From: Escherichia coli
GTDB taxonomy: Bacteria; Pseudomonadota; Gammaproteobacteria; Enterobacterales; Enterobacteriaceae
Strand: one strand, 5' to 3'
Length of the DNA stretch: 64,000 nucleotides
NCBI RefSeq assembly: GCF_048403405.1
Contig: NZ_CP183129.1
In this document: positions 2,026-24,141 of the stretch, piece by piece
How the letters are laid out: each line of letters starts with the position of its first letter
Position numbering within the stretch: position 1 is the first letter of the stretch
Program-made: the position numbers and the translations under genes
The notes under the pieces: generated by a model
What the model was told of the DNA's origin: nothing
What the model saw: only the letters and a program-made list of their open reading frames with translations
Databases searched by the model: none

Positions 2026-4260
2026 ATGGTTGCGGTAAGAAGTGCACATATCAATAAGGCTGGTGAATTTGATCCGGAAAAATGGATCGCAAGTCTGGGT
2101 ATTACCAGCCAGAAGTCGTGTGAGTGCTTAGCCGAAACCTGGGCGTATTGTCTGCAACAGACGCAGGGGCATCCGGATGCCAGTCTGTTATTGTGGCGTG
2201 GTGTTGAGATGGTGGAGATCCTCTCGACATTAAGTATGGACATTGACACGCTGCGGGCGGCGCTGCTGTTCCCTCTGGCGGATGCCAACGTAGTCAGCGA
2301 AGATGTGCTGCGTGAGTGCGTCGGTAAGTCGGTCGTTAACCTTATTCACGGCGTGCGTGATATGGCGGCGATCCGCCAGCTGAAAGCGACGCATACCGAT
2401 TCTGTTTCCTCCGAACAGGTCGATAACGTTCGCCGGATGTTATTGGCGATGGTCGATGATTTTCGCTGCGTGGTCATCAAACTGGCAGAGCGTATTGCTC
2501 ATCTGCGCGAAGTAAAAGACGCGCCGGAAGATGAACGCGTACTGGCGGCAAAAGAGTGCACCAATATCTACGCGCCGTTGGCGAACCGTCTTGGGATTGG
2601 ACAACTGAAATGGGAGCTGGAAGATTACTGCTTCCGTTATCTCCACCCGACCGAATACAAACGCATCGCAAAACTGCTGCATGAACGCCGTCTCGACCGC
2701 GAACACTATATCGAAGAGTTTGTCGGCCATCTGCGCGCTGAGATGAAAGCTGAAGGCGTTAAAGCTGAAGTGTATGGTCGACCGAAACACATCTACAGCA
2801 TCTGGCGCAAAATGCAGAAAAAGAACCTCGCCTTCGATGAGCTGTTTGATGTGCGTGCGGTACGTATTGTCGCCGAGCGTTTACAGGATTGCTATGCCGC
2901 ACTGGGGATAGTGCACACTCACTATCGCCACCTGCCGGATGAGTTTGACGATTACGTCGCTAACCCGAAACCAAACGGTTATCAGTCTATTCATACCGTG
3001 GTTCTGGGGCCGGGTGGCAAAACCGTTGAGATCCAAATCCGCACTAAACAGATGCATGAAGATGCAGAGTTGGGTGTTGCTGCGCACTGGAAATATAAAG
3101 AGGGCGCGGCAGCTGGCGGCGCACGTTCGGGACATGAAGACCGGATTGCCTGGCTGCGTAAACTGATTGCGTGGCAGGAAGAGATGGCTGATTCCGGCGA
3201 AATGCTCGACGAAGTACGTAGCCAGGTCTTTGACGACCGGGTGTACGTCTTTACGCCGAAAGGTGATGTCGTTGATTTGCCTGCGGGATCAACACCGCTG
3301 GACTTCGCTTACCACATCCACAGTGATGTCGGACACCGCTGCATCGGGGCAAAAATTGGCGGGCGCATTGTGCCGTTCACCTACCAGCTGCAGATGGGCG
3401 ACCAGATTGAAATTATCACCCAGAAACAGCCGAACCCCAGCCGTGACTGGTTAAACCCAAACCTCGGTTACGTCACAACCAGCCGTGGGCGTTCGAAAAT
3501 TCACGCCTGGTTCCGTAAACAGGACCGTGACAAAAACATTCTGGCTGGGCGGCAAATCCTTGACGACGAGCTGGAACATCTGGGGATCAGCCTGAAAGAA
3601 GCAGAAAAACATCTGCTGCCGCGTTACAACTTCAATGATGTCGACGAGTTGCTGGCGGCAATTGGTGGCGGGGATATCCGTCTCAATCAGATGGTGAACT
3701 TCCTGCAATCGCAATTTAATAAGCCGAGTGCCGAAGAGCAGGATGCCGCCGCGCTGAAGCAACTTCAGCAAAAAAGCTATACGCCGCAAAACCGCAGTAA
3801 AGATAACGGTCGTGTGGTGGTAGAAGGTGTCGGTAACCTGATGCACCACATCGCGCGCTGCTGCCAGCCGATTCCTGGAGATGAGATTGTCGGCTTCATT
3901 ACCCAGGGGCGCGGTATTTCAGTGCATCGTGCAGACTGTGAGCAACTGGCGGAACTGCGCTCCCATGCGCCAGAACGCATTGTTGACGCGGTATGGGGCG
4001 AGAGCTACTCCGCCGGATATTCGCTGGTGGTCCGGGTGATGGCCAATGATCGCAGTGGATTATTGCGTGATATCACGACCATTCTTGCCAACGAGAAGGT
4101 GAACGTGCTTGGCGTTGCCAGCCGTAGCGACACTAAACAGCAACTGGCGACTATCGACATGACCATTGAGATTTACAATCTGCAAGTGCTGGGCCGCGTG
4201 CTGGGTAAACTCAATCAGGTGCCGGATGTTATCGACGCGCGTCGGTTGCACGGGAGTTAG
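2026..4260 (+). CDS. relA: GTP pyrophosphokinase / (p)ppGpp synthetase I RelA
   Basis: 744-aa ORF with RelA/SpoT-type synthetase region and C-terminal regulatory domains; sits between rlmD and mazE. Confidence 0.96.
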   Translation: MVAVRSAHINKAGEFDPEKWIASLGITSQKSCECLAETWAYCLQQTQGHPDASLLLWRGVEMVEILSTLSMDIDTLRAALLFPLADANVVSEDVLRECVGKSVVNLIHGVRDMAAIRQLKATHTDSVSSEQVDNVRRMLLAMVDDFRCVVIKLAERIAHLREVKDAPEDERVLAAKECTNIYAPLANRLGIGQLKWELEDYCFRYLHPTEYKRIAKLLHERRLDREHYIEEFVGHLRAEMKAEGVKAEVYGRPKHIYSIWRKMQKKNLAFDELFDVRAVRIVAERLQDCYAALGIVHTHYRHLPDEFDDYVANPKPNGYQSIHTVVLGPGGKTVEIQIRTKQMHEDAELGVAAHWKYKEGAAAGGARSGHEDRIAWLRKLIAWQEEMADSGEMLDEVRSQVFDDRVYVFTPKGDVVDLPAGSTPLDFAYHIHSDVGHRCIGAKIGGRIVPFTYQLQMGDQIEIITQKQPNPSRDWLNPNLGYVTTSRGRSKIHAWFRKQDRDKNILAGRQILDDELEHLGISLKEAEKHLLPRYNFNDVDELLAAIGGGDIRLNQMVNFLQSQFNKPSAEEQDAAALKQLQQKSYTPQNRSKDNGRVVVEGVGNLMHHIARCCQPIPGDEIVGFITQGRGISVHRADCEQLAELRSHAPERIVDAVWGESYSAGYSLVVRVMANDRSGLLRDITTILANEKVNVLGVASRSDTKQQLATIDMTIEIYNLQVLGRVLGKLNQVPDVIDARRLHGS

Positions 4261-12669: not shown

Positions 12670-14148
12670 TTACGCATTCGACCAGCTCTGGATCGAATCC
12701 GCATTCCCCAATTCCCCATGCATCACTTCATACGATTTTTTCAGGATTACATCAGTATGTTTGGTTAACTCCTTGAAAATGCCTTTATTCATCGCGTTGT
12801 AGCGTTTGGCGTTGCTCTCAACAGGCATAAAGATATCTTTCACGCGAACCATTTTGTCGACAGCCGTTGCGTAATCCGGGTATAGCCCCAGACCTACCGC
12901 CGTATTAATCGCTGCCCCCAGGCTTGCACAACCATTAATGGCGTTACGGCGTGCCGGAAGGTTGAACACGTCGGCAAAAATCTGCATAAACAGATCGCTG
13001 TTCGAACCGCCGCCAGTAATGATCACATGCTTTGCAAAGTGATTCATTTCATTACACATATTGTCGTAATTGTTCTTCAGCGTCAGCGCCACGCTTTCCA
13101 GTATCGAACGATATATCCATGCGTAATCCATGCTGGAATCAAAGCCAATCATAATCCCGCGTTTGTACGGTTCCCACGGATTGGTCAGCCAGTCCAGCAC
13201 CGTCATCAGACCATTACAGCCTGGCGGCACACAAGACGCTTTTTTGTTGAGCAAATCTTCCGGTGAAAGATCCTGTGCTTTGGCATCCTGAATTAACGAC
13301 TCGCCTAACATGTCGCGTAGCCAGCTCACCGTCCACATGCCTTTGCGAATACCGTAACCTTCATACAGCAAGGTTTGCGGAATAGAAGACATAATCGGCC
13401 AGTACGCTACCGGATCTTTCGGTAGTAATTTGCCGTTCATCATCAACGCGATGTAAGTGCCAAGAGAAATTACCGCAGTTTCATCATCCAGTAACCCGGC
13501 TCCCAGTGCTTCTACCGGTTTATCACTGGTGGTACAAACAACCGGCAGCCCAGCCGGGAAATGTGTCGCCAGCGCGGCTTGAGGAGTGATATGCCCAAGA
13601 ACAGTGCCCGGCATTTGCACATCAAACAGCATATGACGGGGGATATTAAACTTCTCCATGACTGCGGCATCTTCACTCCATGCCCAGGTCTTATAATCCA
13701 CCGGCCACTGACCAAAATAGTTGGCGATATTGTCTTTAAACTCGCCGGTTAAGCGATGCGTCAGATAACCCGAAAAAGAGGTGACATATGCCACGTCAGG
13801 ATTCGTATGTTCGTAAGGGCGTGTAACGCGTGCATCCTGCCAGCTAATCAACGGCGCAGCTGGCGTGCCATCGGCTTTCAATAACGCACGGCAGCAACGG
13901 ATGGATCCCAGACCAATACCGACAATATCTTCTTTATTTCCGGCAAACTGACTCATCAAATCGTGACCGGCAAAGCATAATGATGCCCATAAATCGTCGT
14001 CAGGATGTTCTGCGGTATCGGCATCTGGCGTGTGCATCGGCTGCAATAAGCCTTTGCCTTCGCAAACCACATTACCTTCCAGATCGTACATCACCACTTT
14101 TGTGCTCTGACTTCCACCATCAATCCCTATGATGTATTTTTTCGACAT
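12670..14148 (-). CDS. ygcE: FGGY-family carbohydrate kinase YgcE
   Basis: 492-aa ORF MSKKYIIGIDGGSQSTKVVMYDLEG... typical of FGGY sugar kinase N-terminus. Confidence 0.9.
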   Translation of the reverse strand: MSKKYIIGIDGGSQSTKVVMYDLEGNVVCEGKGLLQPMHTPDADTAEHPDDDLWASLCFAGHDLMSQFAGNKEDIVGIGLGSIRCCRALLKADGTPAAPLISWQDARVTRPYEHTNPDVAYVTSFSGYLTHRLTGEFKDNIANYFGQWPVDYKTWAWSEDAAVMEKFNIPRHMLFDVQMPGTVLGHITPQAALATHFPAGLPVVCTTSDKPVEALGAGLLDDETAVISLGTYIALMMNGKLLPKDPVAYWPIMSSIPQTLLYEGYGIRKGMWTVSWLRDMLGESLIQDAKAQDLSPEDLLNKKASCVPPGCNGLMTVLDWLTNPWEPYKRGIMIGFDSSMDYAWIYRSILESVALTLKNNYDNMCNEMNHFAKHVIITGGGSNSDLFMQIFADVFNLPARRNAINGCASLGAAINTAVGLGLYPDYATAVDKMVRVKDIFMPVESNAKRYNAMNKGIFKELTKHTDVILKKSYEVMHGELGNADSIQSWSNA

Positions 14149-14174
14149 GATTTTTCTCCTGTAATTTTCTGGAC

Positions 14175-15452
14175 TTACTTGCTGCTAGCCATAGCAGGGG
14201 CGCTATCAGCAGTACGAATTTTTTGGAACAGCAAAAAGGTAAAGACGATCACCATGGCAAGCGCCGCCATGCCCATCAGCCACATATTGCGGTAGGCTTC
14301 TGCAGCGGGCAGGGTGTCTTGCCAGTAGCCGATAATCGGGTAAACGAAGACATCCGGCAGGAATCCAATCACCGAACAAATACCTACCGTGGTGCCCATA
14401 ATGTAAGACGGTGTTCTCGCTTCGCCAGGGCAGGCCCAGTACAGCCCGCGTGAGGCGTAACAGGTGAATCCCAGCAGTAAAATCAGGCCAATCCCCATCG
14501 CGACCGATTGCGGGTTAGAGTTCGTGACGAGCAGGGCAGTTAACGCCAGCAAGCCGAGTACGGAAAGGATTTGGATCACGCGGGTAGGGGATTTCACTTT
14601 GCTGTAGGTGGAGATAATGCCACCAAGTGGGCCGCACAGTGCGCGGAAGATTTTGTTGATCACAATCCCCATGTAGCTCGCCGCCACCAGCGACATGCCG
14701 TACATTTCGGTCAGATAGTTGGTGGAGTAACTCAGAATGGCGTAGATGGTGAAGACACCAAAAATCACCATGCTGCAATACCAGGTGGTGCTGATGCGCA
14801 AAACAGCCAGGATGTCGCTAAGCTGGAATGACTGTTTTTCTTCGTTATTGGTATTGCGCAGGTTGTTGTTATCGCTAACAAAAAACCAACACAAAATGCC
14901 CAGCAGAATGTAAACCACACTATAGATAATAATGACCGTTTTCAGGCTGGCGCTGTCATCCGGTGCAAAGCGAGAAAAGACCCACATGGTAAACACCGCC
15001 AGCGACATTACACCGACGCCGCGCAGCCCTTCCATCCAGCCCATAATTTTCCCTTGCTCGCTATGATCGCCCAGCAACGAGGCGGCTTTAATCGACACCG
15101 ACCACAGCATTAAAATCGTCGTTATCGCAAAGGCGACCTGAATACAGAGCATTACCCACAGCGGTGGATATGTTGCCATTAACAGACCCAGTAATCCGGT
15201 AATGATCATCGCGGAAGTAATCATTTTGCGGTGTGAAAATTTATCGGCAATAACGCCGCTGGGGGCATAAAGAATAATAGCCGCAATACCAAAGGTACTC
15301 ATTATTAAACCTATCTCGGTATTGCTGAATCCCATAAATTTCGCCATGGGAATTTGATAAATATAACGTAAATAAGCCAGGTCGAAACTAACGCCGCCGC
15401 TAAAACTAATTATCGCGAGGGTTATCCAACGGCGATATGAGTTGTGTTGCAT
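14175..15452 (-). CDS. yqcE: MFS transporter YqcE
   Basis: 425-aa polytopic hydrophobic ORF upstream of and co-oriented with ygcE. Confidence 0.88.
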   Translation of the reverse strand: MQHNSYRRWITLAIISFSGGVSFDLAYLRYIYQIPMAKFMGFSNTEIGLIMSTFGIAAIILYAPSGVIADKFSHRKMITSAMIITGLLGLLMATYPPLWVMLCIQVAFAITTILMLWSVSIKAASLLGDHSEQGKIMGWMEGLRGVGVMSLAVFTMWVFSRFAPDDSASLKTVIIIYSVVYILLGILCWFFVSDNNNLRNTNNEEKQSFQLSDILAVLRISTTWYCSMVIFGVFTIYAILSYSTNYLTEMYGMSLVAASYMGIVINKIFRALCGPLGGIISTYSKVKSPTRVIQILSVLGLLALTALLVTNSNPQSVAMGIGLILLLGFTCYASRGLYWACPGEARTPSYIMGTTVGICSVIGFLPDVFVYPIIGYWQDTLPAAEAYRNMWLMGMAALAMVIVFTFLLFQKIRTADSAPAMASSK

Positions 15453-15626
15453 ATCGTATTCCCATTTGTAATAGACAAAAAAAGAGAAAAGTAAGCCGCC
15501 CTTTCAGGTGGATTACTTTTCTCAGGTCTCTAGTAATTGCAATAAGAAATAACATGGAAAGTAGTGGTGTTGTGTGAGAGTAATCACGCTTCTGCTTTTT
15601 AAAATTATTTGACAATTCGAATATCA

Positions 15627-15648
15627 CACTGTGATTACGATCACATTA
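15627..15648. promoter_or_regulatory. Candidate CRP site in the yqcE/ygcW divergent region
   Basis: TGTGA-TTACGA-TCACA at about 15630-15645 matches the CRP core consensus TGTGA-N6-TCACA. Confidence 0.55.
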
Positions 15649-15697
15649 GCGATTATGCCCTTATGATAAAAATTATCTCCAGTTACCAGAGATAATG

Positions 15698-15744
15698 AGA
15701 AAGGTAACTTCCCTCTCGCGGGGGAAGTTACCTTTCTTTTTTTG
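15698..15744 (+). terminator. Leader terminator/attenuator hairpin immediately upstream of the ygcW RBS
   Basis: AAAGGTAACTTCCC-TCTCGCGG-GGGAAGTTACCTTT (14-bp perfect stem) followed by CTTTTTTTG; upstream AGTTACC (15681-15687) is complementary to GGTAACT in the left arm, a possible antiterminator alternative. Confidence 0.65.
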
Positions 15745-15767
15745 CCTTACGGAAATTGGAGCTAACT

Positions 15768-16553
15768 ATGTCAATCGAATCTCTCAATGCGTTCTCAATG
15801 GATTTTTTCTCCCTGAAAGGTAAAACCGCAATTGTTACCGGCGGGAATAGCGGTTTAGGCCAGGCATTTGCCATGGCGCTGGCCAAAGCAGGCGCAAATA
15901 TCTTTATTCCAAGCTTCGTTAAAGATAACGGCGAAACAAAGGAAATGATTGAAAAACAGGGTGTTGAGGTGGACTTCATGCAGGTGGATATCACCGCAGA
16001 AGGCGCGCCGCAGAAGATAATCGCCGCCTGTTGCGAACGTTTCGGTACCGTCGATATTCTGATTAACAATGCCGGTATTTGTAAGCTGAATAAGGTGCTG
16101 GACTTCGGTCGTGCCGACTGGGACCCGATGATTGATGTGAACCTGACCGCCGCATTCGAGTTAAGCTATGAAGCTGCAAAAATTATGATCCCGCAGAAAA
16201 GCGGTAAAATCATTAATATCTGTTCATTATTCTCTTACTTAGGTGGACAATGGTCACCTGCATATTCTGCCACTAAACATGCTCTTGCCGGGTTCACCAA
16301 AGCTTATTGTGATGAACTAGGTCAATATAATATTCAGGTAAATGGTATTGCTCCGGGATATTACGCTACCGATATCACTCTGGCGACCCGTAGTAATCCA
16401 GAAACTAACCAGCGCGTTCTTGATCATATTCCGGCAAACCGTTGGGGCGATACTCAGGATTTAATGGGCGCAGCCGTATTCCTCGCAAGTCCGGCATCGA
16501 ATTATGTCAACGGACATTTATTAGTGGTTGATGGCGGTTATTTAGTGCGCTAA
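15768..16553 (+). CDS. ygcW: Short-chain dehydrogenase/reductase YgcW
   Basis: SDR fold TGGNSGLG; ATG at 15768 with GGAG RBS preferred over the TTG start at 15756 in the ORF track. Confidence 0.9.
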   Translation: MSIESLNAFSMDFFSLKGKTAIVTGGNSGLGQAFAMALAKAGANIFIPSFVKDNGETKEMIEKQGVEVDFMQVDITAEGAPQKIIAACCERFGTVDILINNAGICKLNKVLDFGRADWDPMIDVNLTAAFELSYEAAKIMIPQKSGKIINICSLFSYLGGQWSPAYSATKHALAGFTKAYCDELGQYNIQVNGIAPGYYATDITLATRSNPETNQRVLDHIPANRWGDTQDLMGAAVFLASPASNYVNGHLLVVDGGYLVR

Positions 16554-16622
16554 TCCATAACGGTGGTTTCTGTTTTCTCTTATTAATGATTATTCCATTT
16601 TTATTATCAGGAAGGAATTACT

Positions 16623-18077
16623 ATGTCTTTATCTCGCGCAGCGATTGTCGACCAGCTAAAGGAAATTGTTGGTGCAGATCGCGTAATTACCGATGAAACA
16701 GTATTAAAGAAGAACAGTATTGACCGTTTTCGCAAATTTCCGGATATTCATGGCATTTATACTTTGCCGATTCCGGCAGCGGTCGTAAAACTCGGTTCCA
16801 CAGAACAAGTATCCCGTGTGCTGAATTTTATGAATGCGCACAAAATTAACGGTGTGCCGCGTACCGGTGCTTCCGCTACCGAAGGTGGGCTGGAAACCGT
16901 TGTGGAAAACTCGGTGGTGCTCGACGGCTCTGCCATGAATCAAATCATTAATATTGATATTGAGAATATGCAGGCCACGGCGCAATGCGGAGTTCCGCTG
17001 GAAGTGCTGGAAAACGCGTTGCGTGAAAAAGGTTACACCACGGGGCATTCTCCGCAGTCAAAGCCGCTGGCGCAGATGGGCGGCCTGGTAGCAACCCGCA
17101 GTATCGGGCAGTTCTCCACACTCTACGGCGCAATCGAAGATATGGTCGTTGGTCTGGAAGCAGTATTGGCTGATGGCACCGTAACACGCATTAAAAACGT
17201 ACCACGCCGCGCGGCAGGCCCGGACATTCGTCACATCATCATCGGCAACGAAGGTGCATTGTGCTATATCACTGAAGTAACAGTGAAAATCTTTAAGTTC
17301 ACCCCGGAAAACAACCTCTTCTACGGCTATATCCTGGAAGACATGAAAACCGGCTTCAACATCCTGCGTGAAATCATGGTGGAAGGGTATCGTCCGTCGA
17401 TCGCTCGTTTGTATGACGCTGAAGATGGCACCCAACACTTCACCCATTTTGCCGACGGAAAATGCGTGCTGATCTTTATGGCTGAAGGTAACCCTCGCAT
17501 TGCGAAGGCGACGGGCGAAGGGATTGCTGAAATCGTGGCACGTTACCCGCAATGCCAGCGAGTGGACAGCAAGCTGATCGAAACCTGGTTTAACAACCTG
17601 AACTGGGGACCGGATAAAGTAGCTGCCGAACGTGTGCAGATCCTCAAAACCGGCAACATGGGCTTTACCACCGAAGTGTCCGGCTGCTGGAGCTGCATTC
17701 ACGAAATCTACGAAAGCGTTATTAACCGTATTCGTACCGAGTTCCCGCACGCCGACGACATCACCATGCTGGGCGGTCACTCCTCTCATAGCTATCAGAA
17801 CGGCACCAACATGTACTTCGTCTACGACTACAACGTCGTTGACTGTAAGCCGGAAGAGGAAATCGACAAGTACCACAATCCGCTCAACAAAATCATCTGC
17901 GAAGAAACCATTCGCCTCGGTGGTTCGATGGTGCACCACCACGGCATTGGTAAACATCGCGTTCACTGGAGCAAGCTGGAACACGGCAGCGCGTGGGCGT
18001 TGCTGGAAGGGCTGAAAAAGCAGTTCGATCCTAACGGCATTATGAATACGGGTACTATCTATCCGATTGAAAAATAA
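16623..18077 (+). CDS. ygcU: FAD-linked oxidase YgcU (GlcD / alkyl-DHAP synthase-like)
   Basis: 484-aa ORF with FAD-binding PCMH-type domain features. Confidence 0.88.
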   Translation: MSLSRAAIVDQLKEIVGADRVITDETVLKKNSIDRFRKFPDIHGIYTLPIPAAVVKLGSTEQVSRVLNFMNAHKINGVPRTGASATEGGLETVVENSVVLDGSAMNQIINIDIENMQATAQCGVPLEVLENALREKGYTTGHSPQSKPLAQMGGLVATRSIGQFSTLYGAIEDMVVGLEAVLADGTVTRIKNVPRRAAGPDIRHIIIGNEGALCYITEVTVKIFKFTPENNLFYGYILEDMKTGFNILREIMVEGYRPSIARLYDAEDGTQHFTHFADGKCVLIFMAEGNPRIAKATGEGIAEIVARYPQCQRVDSKLIETWFNNLNWGPDKVAAERVQILKTGNMGFTTEVSGCWSCIHEIYESVINRIRTEFPHADDITMLGGHSSHSYQNGTNMYFVYDYNVVDCKPEEEIDKYHNPLNKIICEETIRLGGSMVHHHGIGKHRVHWSKLEHGSAWALLEGLKKQFDPNGIMNTGTIYPIEK

Positions 18078-18118
18078 TGTGTCAGGCAGCGTTCCGCGAT
18101 GACGGAGCGTTGCCTTTT

Positions 18119-18149
18119 CGGCTTCTCAGGCGAGAAGCCGTTCTTATTA
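18119..18149 (+). terminator. Hairpin between ygcU and ygcS (candidate internal attenuator)
   Basis: CGGCTTCTC-AGGC-GAGAAGCCG (9-bp stem) followed by TTCTTATTA, about 40 nt after the ygcU stop and 20 nt before the ygcS ATG. Confidence 0.45.
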
Positions 18150-18170
18150 CCGGACAATGAAGGGGTAAAG

Positions 18171-19508
18171 ATGAACACTTCACCGGTGCGAATGGATGAT
18201 TTACCGCTTAACCGTTTTCACTGTCGAATTGCTGCGCTCACTTTCGGCGCACACCTGACCGACGGTTATGTTCTCGGCGTCATTGGTTACGCCATTATTC
18301 AGCTTACGCCCGCCATGCAACTGACGCCGTTAATGGCGGGAATGATTGGCGGCTCGGCGCTCCTTGGTTTGTTTCTTGGCAGCCTGGTTCTTGGATGGAT
18401 CTCCGACCATATTGGTCGGCAAAAAATCTTCACCTTCAGCTTTTTGCTGATTACGCTCGCTTCGTTTTTACAATATTTTGCCACCACGCCAGAGCATCTT
18501 ATAGGACTACGCATTTTGATTGGCATTGGTCTGGGAGGCGATTACTCAGTAGGTCACACTTTGCTGGCTGAATTTTCTCCGCGCCGCCATCGCGGTGTTT
18601 TGCTGGGCGCATTCAGTGTGGTGTGGACCGTAGGCTATGTGCTGGCAAGTATTGCCGGACATCACTTTATTACCGAAAGCCCGGAGGCCTGGCGCTGGCT
18701 GCTGGCATCAGCGGCGTTACCAGCCTTGCTGATTACGCTGCTACGTTGGGGAACGCCAGAATCGCCACGCTGGCTACTGCGCCAGGGGCGTTTTGCAGAA
18801 GCTCACGCTATCGTGCATCGCTACTTTGGTCCCCATGTTTTACTGGGCGATGAAGTGGCAACGGCGACCCATAAACACATCAAAACCTTGTTCTCTTCGC
18901 GCTACTGGCGGCGCACGGCGTTTAACAGCGTCTTCTTTGTCTGCCTCGTAATCCCATGGTTTGTGATTTACACCTGGCTGCCAACTATCGCGCAAACTAT
19001 TGGTCTGGAAGATGCGCTGACAGCTAGCCTGATGCTTAATGCGTTGTTAATTGTGGGCGCGCTGCTGGGATTAGTTCTGACGCACCTGCTGGCACATCGC
19101 AAATTTTTGCTGGGAAGTTTTTTGCTGCTGGCGGCAACGCTGGTAGTGATGGCCTGTTTGCCTTCCGGTAGTTCATTAACGCTGCTGCTTTTTGTTCTCT
19201 TCAGCACCACCATTTCGGCAGTCAGTAATCTGGTGGGCATTTTGCCTGCGGAAAGTTTTCCTACTGACATTCGCTCGCTGGGCGTCGGTTTTGCCACCGC
19301 CATGAGTCGGTTGGGCGCGGCAGTAAGTACGGGCCTGCTGCCGTGGGTGCTGGCGCAGTGGGGAATGCAAGTCACCTTATTGCTCCTGGCGGCAGTGTTG
19401 TTGGTTGGTTTTGTCGTGACCTGGCTATGGGCACCAGAAACCAAAGCACTCCCGCTGGTGGCGGCGGGAAATGTAGGAGGTGCGAATGAACATTCTGTTA
19501 GCGTTTAA
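18171..19508 (+). CDS. ygcS: MFS transporter YgcS
   Basis: Polytopic membrane ORF; internal ATG at 18171 (MNTSPVRMDD...) chosen over the ORF-track start at 18099. Confidence 0.88.
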   Translation: MNTSPVRMDDLPLNRFHCRIAALTFGAHLTDGYVLGVIGYAIIQLTPAMQLTPLMAGMIGGSALLGLFLGSLVLGWISDHIGRQKIFTFSFLLITLASFLQYFATTPEHLIGLRILIGIGLGGDYSVGHTLLAEFSPRRHRGVLLGAFSVVWTVGYVLASIAGHHFITESPEAWRWLLASAALPALLITLLRWGTPESPRWLLRQGRFAEAHAIVHRYFGPHVLLGDEVATATHKHIKTLFSSRYWRRTAFNSVFFVCLVIPWFVIYTWLPTIAQTIGLEDALTASLMLNALLIVGALLGLVLTHLLAHRKFLLGSFLLLAATLVVMACLPSGSSLTLLLFVLFSTTISAVSNLVGILPAESFPTDIRSLGVGFATAMSRLGAAVSTGLLPWVLAQWGMQVTLLLLAAVLLVGFVVTWLWAPETKALPLVAAGNVGGANEHSVSV

Positions 19509-20265
19509 AGCCGAACCGGATGCCGGAATGCTGGCGGAAAAAGAGTGGCAGGCGGCGGCTCAGGGTAATAGCGGACCGGATGTTTCGCTTCTGCTAAGTT
19601 TACTCGGTGCTGATGAACAGGCTGCCGCCGCGCTGCTGTTGGCGCAGAGAAAAAACGGTACGTCGATGTCTTTAACCGCGTTGAGCATGGGGAATGAACG
19701 GGCGTTGCACTGGCTGCGCTATCTCATGGCTCTTGGGTTTGAGGAAGCTGTATTGCTGGAGACGGCGGCAGATCTGCGCTTTGCGCCGGAATTTGTCGCT
19801 CGCCATATTGCCGAATGGCAGCGTCAGAATCCGCTGGATCTGATAATTACCGGCTGCCAAAGCAGCGAAGGGCAGAATGGGCAAACGCCATTTTTGCTGG
19901 CGGAAATGCTGGGCTGGCCCTGCTTCACCCAGGTGGAGCGTTTCACTCTCGACGCGCCGTTTATCACCCTCGAACAGCGTACTGAACATGGGCTGCGCTG
20001 TTGCCGGGTTCGCTTGCCTGCGGTGATTGCCGTGCGTCAGTGTGGTGAAGTGGCCTTGCCAGTACCGGGAATGCGCCAGCGAATGGCTGCGGGGAAAGCA
20101 GCAATTATCCGTAAAACTGTTGCTGCCGAATCGCCAGCGATGCAGTGTCGGCAACTGGCAAGAGCAGAGCAACGACGCGGAGCGACGCTGATTGATGGGC
20201 AAACGGTAGCAGAAAAAGCGCAAAAGCTATGGCAGGACTATTTACGCCAAAGGATGCAGCCATGA
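19486..20265 (+). CDS. ygcR: Electron-transfer flavoprotein beta-subunit-like protein YgcR
   Basis: ORF MNILLAFKAEPDAGML... ETF-beta/FixA-like; start trimmed from the ORF-track 19480. Confidence 0.85.
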   Translation: MNILLAFKAEPDAGMLAEKEWQAAAQGNSGPDVSLLLSLLGADEQAAAALLLAQRKNGTSMSLTALSMGNERALHWLRYLMALGFEEAVLLETAADLRFAPEFVARHIAEWQRQNPLDLIITGCQSSEGQNGQTPFLLAEMLGWPCFTQVERFTLDAPFITLEQRTEHGLRCCRVRLPAVIAVRQCGEVALPVPGMRQRMAAGKAAIIRKTVAAESPAMQCRQLARAEQRRGATLIDGQTVAEKAQKLWQDYLRQRMQP

Positions 20266-21122
20266 ATATCGCAATTGTGACAATAAATCAGGAGAATGCC
20301 GCAATAGCGAGCTGGCTGGCAGAACAGGATTTCAGCGGTTGTACCCTGGCACACTGGCAGATTGAACCTCAGCCCGCTGTGGCGGAACAGGTACTGGATG
20401 CGCTGGTGGAACAGTGGCAGCGAACGCCTGCGGACGTTGTTATCTTTCCGCCGGGAACGTTTGGCGATGAACTGTCGACCCGGCTGGCCTGGCGTTTACA
20501 TGGTGCAAGCATCTGCCAGGTGACTTCGTTAGATATTCCAACCGTAAGCGTGCGCAAATCCCACTGGGGAAATGCGCTAACGGCGACGCTGCAAACAGAA
20601 AAACGCCTGCTATGCCTTTCCCTGGCGCGTCAGGCGGGAGCAGCGAAAAACGCCACGTTGCCCTCTGGTATGCAGCAACTGAACATTGTCCCAGGTGCGC
20701 TTCCCGACTGGCTGGTTAGCATAGAGAATCTGAAAAATGTTAGCCGCGACCCATTAGCTGAAGCCAGACGGGTGCTGGTGGTGGGGCAGGGCGGAGAGGC
20801 AGATAACCAGGAAATCGCTATGCTGGCAGAAAAGCTGGGAGCCGAAGTGGGCTACAGTCGGGCGCGAGTGATGAACGGTGGCGTTGATGCTGAAAAAGTG
20901 ATTGGTATTTCCGGACATCTGCTGGCACCTGAGGTGTGCATTGTTGTTGGCGCTTCCGGCGCAGCAGCGTTAATGGCGGGCGTACGCAATAGCAAGTTTG
21001 TGGTGGCGATTAATCATGACGCCAGCGCGGCGGTATTTTCACAGGCAGATGTTGGCGTGGTTGATGACTGGAAAGCGGTGCTGGAGGCACTGGTGACAAA
21101 CATTCACGCAGATTGCCAATAA
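20262..21122 (+). CDS. ygcQ: Electron-transfer flavoprotein alpha-subunit-like protein YgcQ
   Basis: ORF MNIAIVTINQENAAIASWLAEQ... ETF-alpha/FixB-like; overlaps the ygcR stop. Confidence 0.85.
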   Translation: MNIAIVTINQENAAIASWLAEQDFSGCTLAHWQIEPQPAVAEQVLDALVEQWQRTPADVVIFPPGTFGDELSTRLAWRLHGASICQVTSLDIPTVSVRKSHWGNALTATLQTEKRLLCLSLARQAGAAKNATLPSGMQQLNIVPGALPDWLVSIENLKNVSRDPLAEARRVLVVGQGGEADNQEIAMLAEKLGAEVGYSRARVMNGGVDAEKVIGISGHLLAPEVCIVVGASGAAALMAGVRNSKFVVAINHDASAAVFSQADVGVVDDWKAVLEALVTNIHADCQ

Positions 21123-21125
21123 CGT

Positions 21126-21238
21126 GTTGCCGGATGATCCTGCCGATGGTTCTGGGCTGGGGATTTGTAAGCCTGATAAGACGCGTCAAGCGTCGTATCA
21201 GGCGCTGAATGTCGGATGTGGCGTGCAGCCTACAAATC
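21126..21238. repeat. REP/BIME-type extragenic palindromes between convergent ygcQ and ygcP
   Basis: GCCTGATAAGACGCGTCAAGCGTCGTATCAGGCG and GTCGGATGTGGCGTGCAGCCTACA match the enterobacterial REP pattern. Confidence 0.7.
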
Positions 21239-21268
21239 ACACAAATTCAATTCGTTACGATTATCCCG

Positions 21269-21844
21269 TCAAAGCAATTTTTTCGCTAGCGTCCAGACCC
21301 CGGTATTCGTGGTGGAAAGCGCCACAACACCCGCGTTAATCGCATTACGCGCATCTTCTTCATCGCACACCAGCCCGCCGGCAATCAGCGGTTGGCGGAT
21401 TTTCTCCGTCACCCAGCCCAGCACTTTGGGCATACAGCCTGGCAGGATCTCAATACAATCCGGATTCGATTGCGCAACTTGCTTATCAATGTTGTGAAAC
21501 GAAATCGAATCAACAATAAACAGGCGATGAATACAGAAAAAACCTTCCGCTCTTGCTGCTTTCAGCATCGATGCTTTCGTGCTGATAATGCCGTCCGCCT
21601 CAGTCACCAGTTTCAAAAACTGAATCACCACTTCTTTATTTGACGCGCCTTCCAGCAAATCAACATGAATAAAAGCATATTTTCCGGCGTTCTTAATCTT
21701 TTTAACGATATTACTGATGGTGCAGATATTGCCGTACAACACGGAAATAAACTGGCATTCAGAGTCGATTGCCAGTTGCAGGCTGGCATTATCTTTAACG
21801 GCAGCAATCACCGGATTCTGGCGGAGCAGGTGTAAGAGGGGCAT
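21269..21844 (-). CDS. ygcP: GlpP-family glycerol-3-phosphate-responsive antiterminator-like protein YgcP
   Basis: 191-aa ORF MPLLHLLRQNPVIAAVKDNASLQLAIDSECQFISVLYG... Confidence 0.8.
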   Translation of the reverse strand: MPLLHLLRQNPVIAAVKDNASLQLAIDSECQFISVLYGNICTISNIVKKIKNAGKYAFIHVDLLEGASNKEVVIQFLKLVTEADGIISTKASMLKAARAEGFFCIHRLFIVDSISFHNIDKQVAQSNPDCIEILPGCMPKVLGWVTEKIRQPLIAGGLVCDEEDARNAINAGVVALSTTNTGVWTLAKKLL

Positions 21845-21860
21845 AAATTATCCTTATTAT

Positions 21861-22121
21861 TTATCCAAAACGGTAGGTGATGCCGAATCCGGAAGGCGGA
21901 TAGCGCCACTGTTGTAGTGTTGATTCGTCGCACAGCAAACGGCAGGTGCCACACTCCAGGCAGCCGCGATAATCAACGCGTAAGTCACCTTCCGGTGTGA
22001 GCGAAAAAAGACCAGCCGGACAAGCGTTAATCAACCGTTGTACCGTCTGACGCTCAACGGAGTCAGCCGGAACAATGTGCGGCGCATCGGCAACGCGCCA
22101 GAGATTACGGGCTACAGACAT
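21861..22121 (-). CDS. ygcO: FixX-like ferredoxin YgcO
   Basis: Cys motif CLECGTCRLLC; internal Met (MSVARNLWR...) chosen as start. Confidence 0.8.
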   Translation of the reverse strand: MSVARNLWRVADAPHIVPADSVERQTVQRLINACPAGLFSLTPEGDLRVDYRGCLECGTCRLLCDESTLQQWRYPPSGFGITYRFG

Positions 22122-23383
22122 CGCAGACTCCTGATAACATCGCCCGCCAGATGCCACAGGCCGTGACGACGTAAATGACGCCAGAATAACTGGCGCAGCG
22201 GTGGAACAGGTTTATCACCCTGATCCCATAAATCACGGGAAATATCCTGCATTAACGCAGGCCATGCACGGTACCATCCAGGGCGTTGCAAAAGCGCCGG
22301 AACATGCTGATAACGTTGTAGAACATCCCATAGCAGGCTGCGCTCTATGTTGTGATGATAAAGCGCAAACAGATTTTGCGGCTCGCGGTGCTGGCAGGCG
22401 CTTATCAGCGTTTGTGCCGCCGCCTGCGCGCCAGTCAGCGCCATATCCATGCCGCGCACGGAAATTCCGGTATTGACGCAACTGCGCAACGCATCGCCCA
22501 GCAGCAGCCAGCCGTTACCGGCGTATTGCACCGGCATACTGTGCAAGCCACCTTCTGGCACCAGATGCGCACCATACTCCAGTGATTCCGTGTTTTTGAT
22601 AAGCGGGCGCACTGCCGGATGCGTTTTAAAGCGAGCCAGCAGCTCGCTTGCCGGAACACGACTTTGCGTAAGGGAAGAGAGCGGGCAAACAATCCCTAAC
22701 GAGAGCGTTTGTTGATTAGTATAAAGAAATGTGCCGCCGGGTAAGTCATCACAGATCCTGCCGCTGAACAGCAACGCTGCGCCTTCGTTATTCTCCAGAT
22801 GAAAACGTTCTTCAATAGCGGATGTTTCCAGCGACAGCACTTCTTTGATCCCCAACGCCATCGCTTCGCCAGCAGGACGAGTCACTAACCCGTGACGTTC
22901 AGCCAGGACGCTGTTGGCACCTTCTGCCAGCACCACATAACGGGCGCGGAGAATATCGTCACCACAAATGACACCACACACCCTGCCGTTTTCTTCATAC
23001 AGCGCATCCACCGTCGCACCAGGGATGCATTCGACACCTTCTTTTTCGGCTTCGGCAACCAGCCACGGATCGAACCGTGCACGTAATACGCTCCAGGATT
23101 CACCGCCGGGCTGTAAGCTGGAAAACGTCGTTGCGCCATCCGGCGTTAACAGGGAAAGGCTTTCGTGAGTGATGCGTCGTTCAAGAGGCGCGGTCAGATG
23201 AAATTGTGGGAGGAGTTCCGCGAGCGCATGGGTGTATAAACGCCCGCCGGAAAGGTTTTTACTGCCGGGAATTTCAGCTCGTTCCAGTAACAGAACGGAC
23301 AAACCTGCCCGCGCGCAGCGTAAAGCACAAGCGGTGCCTGCTATACCCGCACCAATAATAATAATGTCGCAGTCGTCTTCCAT
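22112..23383 (-). CDS. ygcN: FixC-like FAD-dependent oxidoreductase YgcN (ETF-quinone oxidoreductase family)
   Basis: N-terminal dinucleotide-binding motif DIIIIGAGIAGTACA; start set at MEDDCD... Confidence 0.85.
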   Translation of the reverse strand: MEDDCDIIIIGAGIAGTACALRCARAGLSVLLLERAEIPGSKNLSGGRLYTHALAELLPQFHLTAPLERRITHESLSLLTPDGATTFSSLQPGGESWSVLRARFDPWLVAEAEKEGVECIPGATVDALYEENGRVCGVICGDDILRARYVVLAEGANSVLAERHGLVTRPAGEAMALGIKEVLSLETSAIEERFHLENNEGAALLFSGRICDDLPGGTFLYTNQQTLSLGIVCPLSSLTQSRVPASELLARFKTHPAVRPLIKNTESLEYGAHLVPEGGLHSMPVQYAGNGWLLLGDALRSCVNTGISVRGMDMALTGAQAAAQTLISACQHREPQNLFALYHHNIERSLLWDVLQRYQHVPALLQRPGWYRAWPALMQDISRDLWDQGDKPVPPLRQLFWRHLRRHGLWHLAGDVIRSLRCL

Positions 23384-23460
23384 GTCGTGCCCCATATATC
23401 CAGAGCGCAACACCCTAACATAGCGTTACTTAAGGGAAATTGACCGCCGACACACTCTTA

Positions 23461-23826
23461 TCATTCGCCGCGATAGATGCAACCTGCGGTGCAGGTTTCT
23501 TTCACCATAACCGCACTTAACAGCGGAACAACCGGTTTAACCTGATCCCAAATCCATTTTGCTAAAACCTCGCTGGTCGGGTTTTCCAGGCCAGGAATAT
23601 CATTGAGATAATAGTGATCGAGGCGCTCGTAGGTTGGCTTAAACGCCGCTTTTAGTTCAGCGAAATCGATAATCCAGCCCGTATGCGGATCGACTTCCCC
23701 GGTAATTTCCAGTCGCACCATAAAGGAATGCCCGTGCAGGCGACCACATTTATGCCCTTCCGGGACGTGTGGTAAGCGGTGAGCGGCTTCGAAGGTGAAA
23801 TCTTTAAATAACGTGGTGGACATCAT
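23461..23826 (-). CDS. queD: 6-carboxy-5,6,7,8-tetrahydropterin synthase QueD
   Basis: [35 protein letters not shown]... ; internal Met start chosen over the ORF-track 23910. Confidence 0.92.
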
Positions 23827-24141
23827 AATTTCTCTACATGACGATAAAACCGCCGTAGAGTACCGGAAAGGCTGTTTTTTCGCATTATCTAAAACGACTT
23901 TGTTGCGCAAAATCGCTGATTTATCTTAATGATTGGCTAAATTCATTTGTTTTTCATTGGGTTGGTTAATCTGTTTTGTTGTTAAAGACTATTGCTAAAA
24001 CAGGTTAGTCGATTTGGTTATTAGTTATCGCTATCCCGTCTTTAATCCACACCGTTCACCCCGTTAACCTTACCTTCTCTTCTGTTTTATGGGCGCTGAC
24101 AGGGCGCAGAAACAGCTTTGCTTACTGGAACATAACGACGC
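23827..24141. promoter_or_regulatory. Upstream regulatory region of cysJIH (expected CysB-dependent promoter)
   Basis: 315-bp AT-rich non-coding region upstream of cysJ; assignment rests on known cys-regulon biology, no individual site mapped here. Confidence 0.4.

Follow-up and report, generated by a model that had tools for sequence, protein, structure and literature searches.

A conserved sense-strand RNA hairpin with terminator architecture at the ygcU-ygcS junction of enterobacteria

Comparative sequence analysis indicates that the spacer between ygcU and ygcS of Escherichia coli encodes a real, selected and strand-specific hairpin in the sense RNA, with the architecture of an intrinsic terminator; we refer to it as hairpin 2. 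The element is most likely ancient and has been maintained by selection in the ygcW-ygcU-ygcS-ygcR-ygcQ operon. As to how it acts, we judge the chances to be about even that it is a leaky internal intrinsic terminator, or a 3′-end-forming hairpin, that lowers the expression of ygcS-ygcR-ygcQ relative to that of ygcW-ygcU and is probably modulated by the proximity of the ribosome. In the following, the window is the whole 64,000-nucleotide stretch of E. coli DNA that was analysed, and all coordinates refer to it unless a K-12 position is given.

Gene organisation and the start of ygcS

The ygc cluster is a poorly studied catabolic cluster of E. coli, and its sugar-catabolism operon is uncharacterised. 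With an 801-base query across the ygcU-ygcS junction, the window was 100% identical to strain TUM14771 and approximately 97.6% identical to K-12. The genes and signals that concern us here are arranged as follows.

14175-15452, minus strand: yqcE
15768-16553, plus strand: ygcW
16623-18077, plus strand: ygcU
18075-18077, plus strand: stop codon TAA of ygcU (sequence and annotation)
18160-18165, plus strand: Shine-Dalgarno sequence AAGGGG of ygcS
18171-18173, plus strand: start codon ATG of ygcS (homologue alignment and curated K-12 record)
18171-19508, plus strand: ygcS
3′ of ygcS, plus strand: ygcR and ygcQ

The genes ygcP-ygcO-ygcN are convergent to ygcW-ygcU-ygcS-ygcR-ygcQ. According to Pfam, YgcW is a short-chain dehydrogenase, YgcU an FAD-linked oxidase and YgcS an MFS transporter of the sugar type. 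YgcP matches the GlpP family (PF04309, E = 1.4e-62; ‘glycerol-3-phosphate responsive antiterminator’) as a full-length member.

The PGAP annotation starts ygcS at the ATG at 18099, giving a protein of 469 aa, and both of the hairpins described below would then lie within the coding sequence. We rejected this placement on several grounds. The loop of hairpin 1 contains the ATG at 18099, which is not preceded by a Shine-Dalgarno sequence, and this in-frame upstream ATG, together with the extension that it would encode, is found only in Escherichia. When homologues of YgcS in more than 40 species are aligned, they begin with the first residue (MNTSPVRM) of the 445-aa form, whose start is at 18171, and the curated K-12 record places the start at the same position. 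The PGAP start is therefore almost certainly wrong, and because ygcS starts at 18171 and the extension is limited to Escherichia, the ygcU-ygcS spacer is genuinely intergenic. The PGAP start, which is carried in thousands of E. coli genomes, would thus be 24 codons too long and would hide RNA elements in ‘coding’ sequence.

Structure and conservation of the junction hairpins

In the E. coli spacer, the stop codon of ygcU is followed in order by 6 nt, hairpin 1, UUUU, hairpin 2, a U-rich tail and the ribosome-binding site (RBS) of ygcS. The elements are listed below.

18084-18115, plus strand: hairpin 1, AGGCAGCGUUCCG-CGAUGA-CGGAGCGUUGCCU, a 13-bp stem, then U4 (18115-18118)
18119-18140, plus strand: hairpin 2, CGGCUUCUC-AGGC-GAGAAGCCG, 9 bp with 6 G-C pairs and a tetraloop
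18141-18149, plus strand: U-rich tail UUCUUAUUA (DNA TTCTTATTA), 6 U in 9 nt, interrupted; the predicted release zone if the hairpin terminates
18148-18188, plus strand: tentative predicted stem-loop enclosing the RBS (−11.9 kcal/mol, z = −1.46)

Hairpin 2 is composed of a 5′ arm (CGGCTTCTC, 18119-18127), the loop AGGC (18128-18131) and a 3′ arm (GAGAAGCCG, 18132-18140). All nine pairs of its stem are perfect and six of them are G-C, and it has the GC-rich stem-loop of an intrinsic terminator, for which a stem of about 5-14 bp and a loop of 3-8 nt are typical. Folded with short flanks, it reached −15.6 kcal/mol, compared with −5.65 ± 2.06 kcal/mol for dinucleotide shuffles (z = −4.83; 0 of 200 shuffles were as good). 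A sequence-only reading of the window had described a 9-bp GC-rich stem and a U-rich tract between ygcU and ygcS, and these are present exactly as it stated. The distance of 20 nt to the ygcS ATG given there matches the end of the U-rich tract, which lies approximately 21 nt upstream of the ATG; the end of the stem is 30 nt from it. The whole 111-nt ygcU-ygcS junction had a folding z-score of −4.87, and the ygcW-ygcU spacer was unstructured (z = −0.16). Hairpins 1 and 2 form independent stems in both the minimum-energy and the centroid folds. A generic terminator pattern scan gave 22 sites in 9 kb where 11.8 were expected; because such a scan is noisy by itself, we placed the weight on folding energy and on conservation across species.

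A scan for YgcS in the GTDB representative genomes yielded 47 Enterobacterales loci with the same gene order, and their ygcU-ygcS junctions were aligned. In all 47 loci, a strong hairpin (−14 to −34 kcal/mol) is located right after the ygcU stop codon. Homologues of hairpin 2 occur in 27 distinct junction sequences ranging from Escherichia to Mixta, and are found in Klebsiella, Citrobacter, Raoultella, Superficieibacter, Yokenella, Pluralibacter, Entomohabitans and others, and hairpins unrelated in sequence occupy the same spot in the RIT693/Cedecea group, Buttiauxella, Limnobaculum, Budvicia, Serratia, Rahnella, Enterobacillus and an Enterobacterales MAG. Among the 27 distinct orthologues, 97.9% of the stem cells of hairpin 2 are paired, compared with 36-62% in a control in which the partner was slid by 1-3 columns. 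Compensatory double changes are found at three pairs of the stem, and many of the one-sided changes are compatible with wobble pairing. Conservation was 0.91-0.93 in the stem columns, 0.43 in the 5′ flank and 0.49 in the loop. The alignment also contains 23 stem cells with G·U wobbles, and because the opposite strand would have A·C mismatches in their place, the object of selection appears to be the sense RNA and not a DNA palindrome.

We considered whether the element belongs to a known family of repeats or RNAs. Among 5426 complete E. coli genomes searched with blastn (11-nt words, E ≤ 10), 5092 contain the 93-nt spacer, in a single place per genome (median 1), and the 64-kb window contains no second copy of it, even at 3 mismatches. 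Since it occurs once per genome, hairpin 2 is not a REP-type repeat, and a dispersed repeat of any of the REP, BIME or ERIC kinds was rejected on this ground and for want of a REP consensus. A known RNA family was rejected as well, since in the Rfam 15 scan of 15400-19600 the junction had no match, and the only three matches outside it were chance-level ones to families of eukaryotes (E = 2-7).

Hairpin 1, of which the earlier reading made no mention, is stronger than hairpin 2 (−23.4 kcal/mol, z = −6.0) and begins 6 nt past the ygcU stop codon. In the junction alignment it is confined to Escherichia and absent elsewhere, and within Escherichia its stem is kept through U-A, U-G and C-G states at paired positions. 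The spot beside hairpin 2 is a hotspot for small palindromic insertions, which comprise ERIC-like elements, hairpin 1 and IS200.

Terminator strength and published 3′ ends

In the orthologues, the nine nucleotides past the stem contain 3-8 U, with a mean of 5.6 of 9 (62%), compared with 2.6 (29%) in the 5′ flank. Canonical U-tracts are found in C. sedlakii (U7), MAG_OH (U8), Pluralibacter (U6) and Limnobaculum (U5GU3), and the tract is essentially missing in Serratia DD3, Rahnella (first hairpin) and C. amalonaticus. A version of the E. coli tail UUCUUAUUA with a repaired U-tract would be UUUUUUUUA. Terminator strength was expressed by a d'Aubenton-Carafa-type score d, computed with ViennaRNA energies, of which only the relative values are meaningful.

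ygcW leader terminator: d = 42
yqcE leader terminator: d = 25
E. coli hairpin 1: d = 8-11
E. coli hairpin 2: d about 2, borderline
Orthologous junction hairpins: d = +44 to −44

As regards the U-tract of an intrinsic terminator, which typically covers about 7-9 nt directly 3′ of the stem, E. coli has an interrupted tail with 6 U in 9 nt and a d of about 2, and the orthologues range from U8 down to 3 of 9. Hairpin 2 is predicted to be weak in E. coli, where its U-tract is eroded. More generally, the junction is predicted to have the architecture of an intrinsic terminator with a modest and variable efficiency, which would be expected if read-through must persist. Because U-tract strength varies so widely among the orthologues, the constant feature is the hairpin and not a good terminator, and this equally fits a pure role in RNA stability.

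The published Term-seq data of Adams et al. 2021 (PMC7815308) contain only two 3′ ends in this region, those of the two leader terminators. One is located at 2900311 on the minus strand, 38 nt upstream of ygcW, with an intrinsic-terminator score of 15.8, and the other at 2900556 on the plus strand, 36 nt upstream of yqcE, with a score of 11.4; both were scored as Rho-independent. The ygcW leader terminator itself occupies 15697-15745 of the window (K-12 approximately 2900296-2900345). In K-12, hairpin 2 maps to NC_000913.3 2897901-2897922 (minus strand), and the list in PMC7815308, in which the operon was stopped at the leader, has no 3′ end at the junction (NC_000913.3 approximately 2897892-2897925, minus strand). 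Because transcription stops at the leader terminator under the conditions of that study, the lack of a junction 3′ end says little. The SMRT-Cappable-seq and TERMITe supplements have no entry for the whole cluster.

As the main rival to a leaky terminator, we hold it possible, if on the unlikely side, that the hairpin is a barrier in RNA stability or processing without meaningful termination, which would block 3′-to-5′ exonucleases or act as a protective 5′ stem-loop and so give differing half-lives. In one variant, an endonucleolytic cut would occur downstream and the hairpin would then stabilise the ygcW-ygcU segment; in the other, a 5′ stem-loop would protect a processed ygcS-ygcR-ygcQ message. 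Such a role would explain why the hairpin is invariant while the U-tract ranges from U8 to none and is poor in E. coli, and the tandem hairpins of Escherichia and the REP elements at the end of the operon would suit the way in which enterobacteria use decay barriers. The REP of malE-malF, reported on by Newbury et al. in 1987, is said to be a stable stem-loop of this kind. Furthermore, the 3′ end that was mapped in the ygcW leader coincides with the base of the stem's GC core, which shows exonuclease trimming back to such hairpins in this locus. However, a decay barrier has no need of a U-rich tail, and the tails are U-rich in nearly all of the 27 orthologues, several of which are textbook terminators. 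Nor is a cleavage site identifiable. RNase III needs double-stranded RNA of about 20 bp or more, roughly two helical turns, and the stems of 9 and 13 bp are too short for it; since they are also not coaxially continuous, an RNase III site was rejected.

Transcription and translation of ygcS

No promoter-like site was found near the ygcU-ygcS junction in a scan of the sequence, and the 30 nt between the stem and the ygcS ATG are taken up by the U-rich tail, a conserved box and the Shine-Dalgarno sequence. On these grounds a promoter of ygcS itself, 3′ of hairpin 2, was rejected. Because no promoter fits downstream of the hairpin, ygcS-ygcR-ygcQ would be transcribed only through hairpin 2, and for the same reason any stop there must be leaky. 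The earlier suggestion of an RNA element that may tune the expression of the transporter is thus supported in silico, for a functional and strand-specific hairpin well placed to do so, by the conserved stem, the unrelated hairpins at the equivalent place in distant genera, the U-rich tails and the lack of room for a promoter.

A second structure may lie immediately downstream. In the predicted RBS-enclosing stem-loop, UACCGG (18148-18153) pairs with CCGGUG (18183-18188) and UGAAG (18158-18162) with CUUCA (18178-18182), so that the GGGG of the Shine-Dalgarno sequence and the AUG are in the loop. Conservation of the box UUACCGGA extends over 21 loci, and 17 distinct sequences show no synonymous variation at codons 3-6 of ygcS (ACU UCA CCG GUG), whereas later four-fold codons vary. 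In the RIT693 group, different sequences pair in a shifted register around the ygcS RBS, and the Pluralibacter-type junctions have alternative folds in which the Shine-Dalgarno sequence can pair with the U-tract or with the 5′ arm. As the pairing register differs among lineages, no column-wise covariation was obtainable for this stem-loop. We regard it as a tentative lead to a second, translational brake on the transporter.

That the whole arrangement is a device at the level of translation, in which hairpin 2 and the conserved box downstream control access to the ygcS RBS, seems to us improbable. Several routes can be envisaged: ygcS may be uncoupled from the translation of ygcU, an anti-Shine-Dalgarno-like 5′ arm (CUUCUC/CUUCCC) may be sequestered, or the RBS stem-loop may be framed. 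Hairpin 2 lies at a near-constant distance of approximately 30 nt from the ATG while its distance from the stop codon varies from 8 to 204 nt, the conservation of the box and of codons 3-6 extends to synonymous sites, with a predicted pairing of the two around the Shine-Dalgarno sequence and the AUG, and the pairing options of the Pluralibacter-type junctions point in the same direction. The constant spacing may, however, merely mirror a short and fully constrained stretch. The RBS stem-loop has an unexceptional z-score (−1.46), with a pairing register that shifts among lineages and no column-wise covariation, and a purely translational device would leave the U-rich tail unexplained.

The leader motif and antitermination

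The leader of ygcW and, on the opposite strand, that of yqcE share the motif TTACYAGAGA-N(1-4)-TGAGAAARGT. As a pattern, it matches both leaders in the window, where zero chance matches are expected, and it is found in 43 of 49 loci. In an alignment of 56 sequences (cCAGUUACYAGAGAnnAUGAGAAARGUAAY), 18 of the 30 positions are invariant. The motif is located upstream of, and overlaps, the 5′ arm of the leader terminators, and it folds into a 6-bp hairpin (GUUACC/GGUAAC) in which pairing is 100% and two positions are fully compensatory. The strong terminator that follows (−31 kcal/mol, U7) uses the 3′ arm of this hairpin as its own 5′ arm, and in these predicted folds the motif and the terminator form a classic antiterminator/terminator arrangement. 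This pair of leader elements is the more novel and the more interesting biology of the locus.

The sequence-only reading had also proposed that the junction might be another site of antiterminator control. When the junction was compared with the ygcW leader for shared upstream motifs, the motif that is common to the ygcW and yqcE leaders proved to be absent from it, both in the window and in the 47 loci. A covariance model of the leader motif, R1, scored 51 and 45 bits on the two leaders and had no match at the ygcU-ygcS junction (14000-24000 scanned, filters off, E ≤ 10). Over the 47 loci (594 kb), R1 gave 86 matches, every one of which lies in the control region of ygcW/yqcE; the junction had none. 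A leader motif shared by the junction was therefore ruled out by the exact pattern, by R1 on the window and by R1 on the 47 loci, and on this comparison of sequences we reject the view that hairpin 2 would be operated by a leader-type (YgcP/GlpP-like) antitermination motif.

A second conditional terminator under the control of YgcP, a member of the GlpP family, either through direct binding or through a polymerase modified at the leader, is accordingly very improbable. The presence of ygcP in the cluster and the common motif of the terminators in both divergent leaders might suggest it, as might the 5′ region of ygcS, in which UUACCGGACAAUGAAGGGGUAA loosely resembles UUACCAGAGAUAAUGAGAAAGGUAA of the leader motif. 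This resemblance is, however, located downstream of the stem, where it cannot block stem formation before release, and it breaks positions that are invariant in the 56 leaders (AGAGA, UGAGAAA). The minimum-energy and centroid folds contain no alternative antiterminator pairing that would compete for the 5′ arm of hairpin 2. In most genera, only approximately 8 nt, partly covered by the ribosome, precede the junction stem, which leaves no room for an upstream antiterminator structure. A processive modification of the polymerase at the leader has no support, and no processive action is known for GlpP.

The notion that the hairpin has no function, and is a chance palindrome, a REP/ERIC-like remnant or a DNA palindrome for a dimeric regulator, might appeal to the 22 terminator-like sites against 11.8 expected by chance and to the insertion hotspot next door, but it is so improbable as to be nearly negligible, given a single copy per genome without an Rfam match, pairing that is kept by compensatory and G·U changes over a wide phylogeny while the flanks and the loop drift, and G·U wobbles that speak against a palindrome at the DNA level.

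Discussion

How might a leaky terminator at this junction work? Alongside the observed structure, conservation, strand specificity, U-rich tail and position of hairpin 2, and the absence of the leader motif, we infer actual termination there, with an efficiency that would depend in part on the ribosome. Once the U-rich tail has been transcribed, the GC-rich stem would form and a fraction of the transcripts would be released, giving a ygcW-ygcU message whose 3′ end is protected. The other polymerases would read through into ygcS-ygcR-ygcQ, so that fewer transcripts would be available for the synthesis of the membrane transporter and the electron-transfer flavoprotein subunits than for that of the two soluble dehydrogenases. 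If ygcU were well translated, the terminating ribosome would repress the terminator and read-through would be favoured. Between the stop codon and hairpin 2, Escherichia has gained a second hairpin followed by UUUU.

The proposed influence of the ribosome concerns the distance between the hairpin and the ygcU stop codon. Where no insertion is present, the hairpin begins 5-12 nt past the stop codon (8-11 nt in most genera). In Escherichia, hairpin 1 is at +6 and hairpin 2 is 41 nt from the stop, and ERIC-like insertions in four genera move hairpin 2 to +90 to +204. Li et al. 2016 (PMC4824070) reported that the terminator tR2 is near-fully repressed when located 8-9 bp from a stop codon and has an efficiency of approximately 0.9 beyond about 30 bp, and ascribed the repression to a terminating ribosome coupled to RNA polymerase. 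The conserved stop-proximal placement of the junction hairpin therefore suggests that read-through is favoured by active translation of ygcU. Such gating would not apply to hairpin 2 in Escherichia and in the genera with ERIC-like inserts, because it lies 41-204 nt from the stop codon there. The independent insertion events are too few for a trend between stop-to-hairpin distance and U-tract strength to be claimed.

A more elaborate version of the leaky terminator can be imagined, in which the terminator is gated by the ribosome, the Escherichia hairpin at +6 has taken over the gated position as the ancestral U-tract decayed, and the RBS stem-loop is added to make a two-layer, translation-sensing brake on the transporter. 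We consider this version doubtful. If the gating were true, transcription of the transporter and flavoprotein genes would depend on how closely the ribosome trails RNA polymerase in ygcU.

Our study adds one unannotated and well-conserved internal hairpin of the terminator type to the ygc cluster. For work on the expression and the deorphanising of the ygc pathway, this would mean that ygcS-ygcR-ygcQ lie behind two barriers, the first being the leader terminator and the second the junction with its structured RBS. The orthologous variants, which differ in U-tract strength and in distance from the stop codon, should also provide a natural test case of how ribosome proximity tunes intrinsic terminators.

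Intrinsic terminators and attenuators within operons are well known, an example being the rplL-rpoB attenuator, and a terminator in the lacZ-lacY intergenic region was reportedly described by Murakawa et al. in 1991. Like these, the ygcU-ygcS junction places a GC-rich stem-loop and its U-rich tail between genes that are transcribed together, and it would be leaky by necessity, with no downstream promoter and a step-down in the dosage of the downstream genes. In contrast to them, the junction terminator is a predicted one, the U-tract of E. coli is weaker, and a hairpin specific to Escherichia doubles the element on its upstream side. The pyrBI attenuator is a terminator proximal to a stop codon that is repressed by the terminating ribosome.

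Another group of known elements comprises the intercistronic stem-loops that stabilise mRNA, such as the REP sequences of malE-malF and hisJ-hisQ and the hairpins of the puf operon. With these the junction shares a stable hairpin 3′ of the upstream cistron, which can block 3′ exonucleases and give differential stability to the segments of the message; unlike them, hairpin 2 is a single copy without a REP consensus and has a conserved U-rich tail.

The closest parallel for the placement of the hairpin is the series of tR2 positions in PMC4824070, in that the stem lies 8-11 nt past the ygcU stop codon in most genera, that is, in the range of near-full repression of tR2. The junction is natural and not engineered, however, and in E. 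coli hairpin 2 is at 41 nt and only hairpin 1 (+6) is proximal to the ribosome. The Bacillus subtilis glpD leader has, according to the summary of Holmberg & Rutberg 1992 given in PMC9604022, a conditional terminator controlled by GlpP. The ygc cluster resembles that system in that it encodes a full-length GlpP-family protein, YgcP, and the leader terminators look like its targets, whereas the junction hairpin is located outside the leader and has neither the leader motif nor an alternative antiterminator pairing. Set beside these systems, the junction hairpin is an ordinary element of a well-known kind, which has been kept at this spot across the enterobacteria.

Leader elements of ygcW and yqcE

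The divergent genes ygcW and yqcE each carry in their leader a nearly invariant 30-nt motif (cCAGUUACYAGAGAnnAUGAGAAARGUAAY). This motif folds as a 6-bp hairpin that overlaps a strong intrinsic terminator (-31 kcal/mol, U7), such that the hairpin's 3′ arm doubles as the terminator's 5′ arm. The elements are located as follows:

Window 15679-15745, + strand: ygcW leader element, 30-nt motif plus terminator
Window 15470-15540, - strand: yqcE leader element, 30-nt motif plus terminator
Loci L002-L047 (related ygc clusters), around 3100-3600: corresponding leader elements

All 86 matches to R1, a covariance model of the motif common to the two leaders, lie within the ygcW/yqcE divergent control region of 47 Enterobacterales loci. 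In K-12, Rho-independent 3′ ends have been mapped at both leaders (Adams et al. 2021, PMC7815308). The motif corresponds to no Rfam family, and it appears to be new, without an earlier description. The protein that recognises this RNA motif is probably YgcP, of the GlpP family. Between the two divergent promoters lies a perfect CRP-type palindrome, TGTGATTACGATCACA (window 15630-15645), and ygcW/yqcE is among the top-ranked CRP sites predicted by PhyloScan (PMC1794230).

Serratia sp. DD3 (locus L031) retains both leader motifs, and the interval between its ygcQ and ygcN genes contains no ORF of ygcP size:

L031 9069-9350: region between ygcQ and ygcN without a ygcP-sized ORF

A 195-aa ORF elsewhere in this locus was ruled out as ygcP, being unrelated to YgcP. 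Either ygcP lies elsewhere in the genome of Serratia sp. DD3, or the leader motif is functional without it.

The ygcS start codon and ribosome-binding region

In most E. coli genomes, PGAP places the ygcS start at ATG 18099 (469 aa, WP_000147666.1). This codon lies without an SD sequence inside the loop of hairpin 1, the Escherichia-only stem between ygcU and ygcS, and the resulting N-terminal extension is limited to Escherichia. The true start is 18171 (445 aa), matching the curated K-12 record. Around the SD and AUG, pairing is predicted between a conserved box, UUACCGGA, and the synonymously invariant ygcS codons 3-6:

Window 18148-18188: predicted RBS-enclosing stem-loop, conserved box plus ygcS codons 3-6

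The z-score of this fold is weak (-1.5), and in other lineages the same regions pair in a different register or the U-tract pairs with the SD.

Insertions at the ygcU-ygcS junction

Palindromic elements of about 125-195 nt, putatively ERIC-like, occupy a TTATA site just 5′ of hairpin 2, the conserved terminator-like stem, in Klebsiella spallanzanii, Enterobacter sp. 10-1, Raoultella terrigena and Citrobacter koseri (L006, L009, L036 and L047), C. koseri having a mini version. In Escherichia, hairpin 1 occupies the spot of these insertions. In a single strain, E. coli CFSAN018748, an IS200C copy (L050 2569-3279) lies inside the U-rich tail of hairpin 2, between TTCTTATT and ACCGG (window 18148/18149), and splits the hairpin from ygcS.

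Two of the public assemblies compared look contaminated: a 'Planctomycetota' MAG contig (L048) is identical to E. coli K-12 over this junction, and an enterobacterial ygc cluster stands on a 'Chryseobacterium sp. 18061' contig (L021).

The end of the operon

The convergent ygcQ/ygcP spacer (window 21170-21235) contains a REP-type element, GCCTGATAAGACGCG...CGTCGTATCAGGC, and a pattern scan of this spacer found no intrinsic-terminator site; therefore, REPs mark the operon end. The ygc operon thus presents a contrast between REPs at its end and a terminator-like hairpin in its interior.
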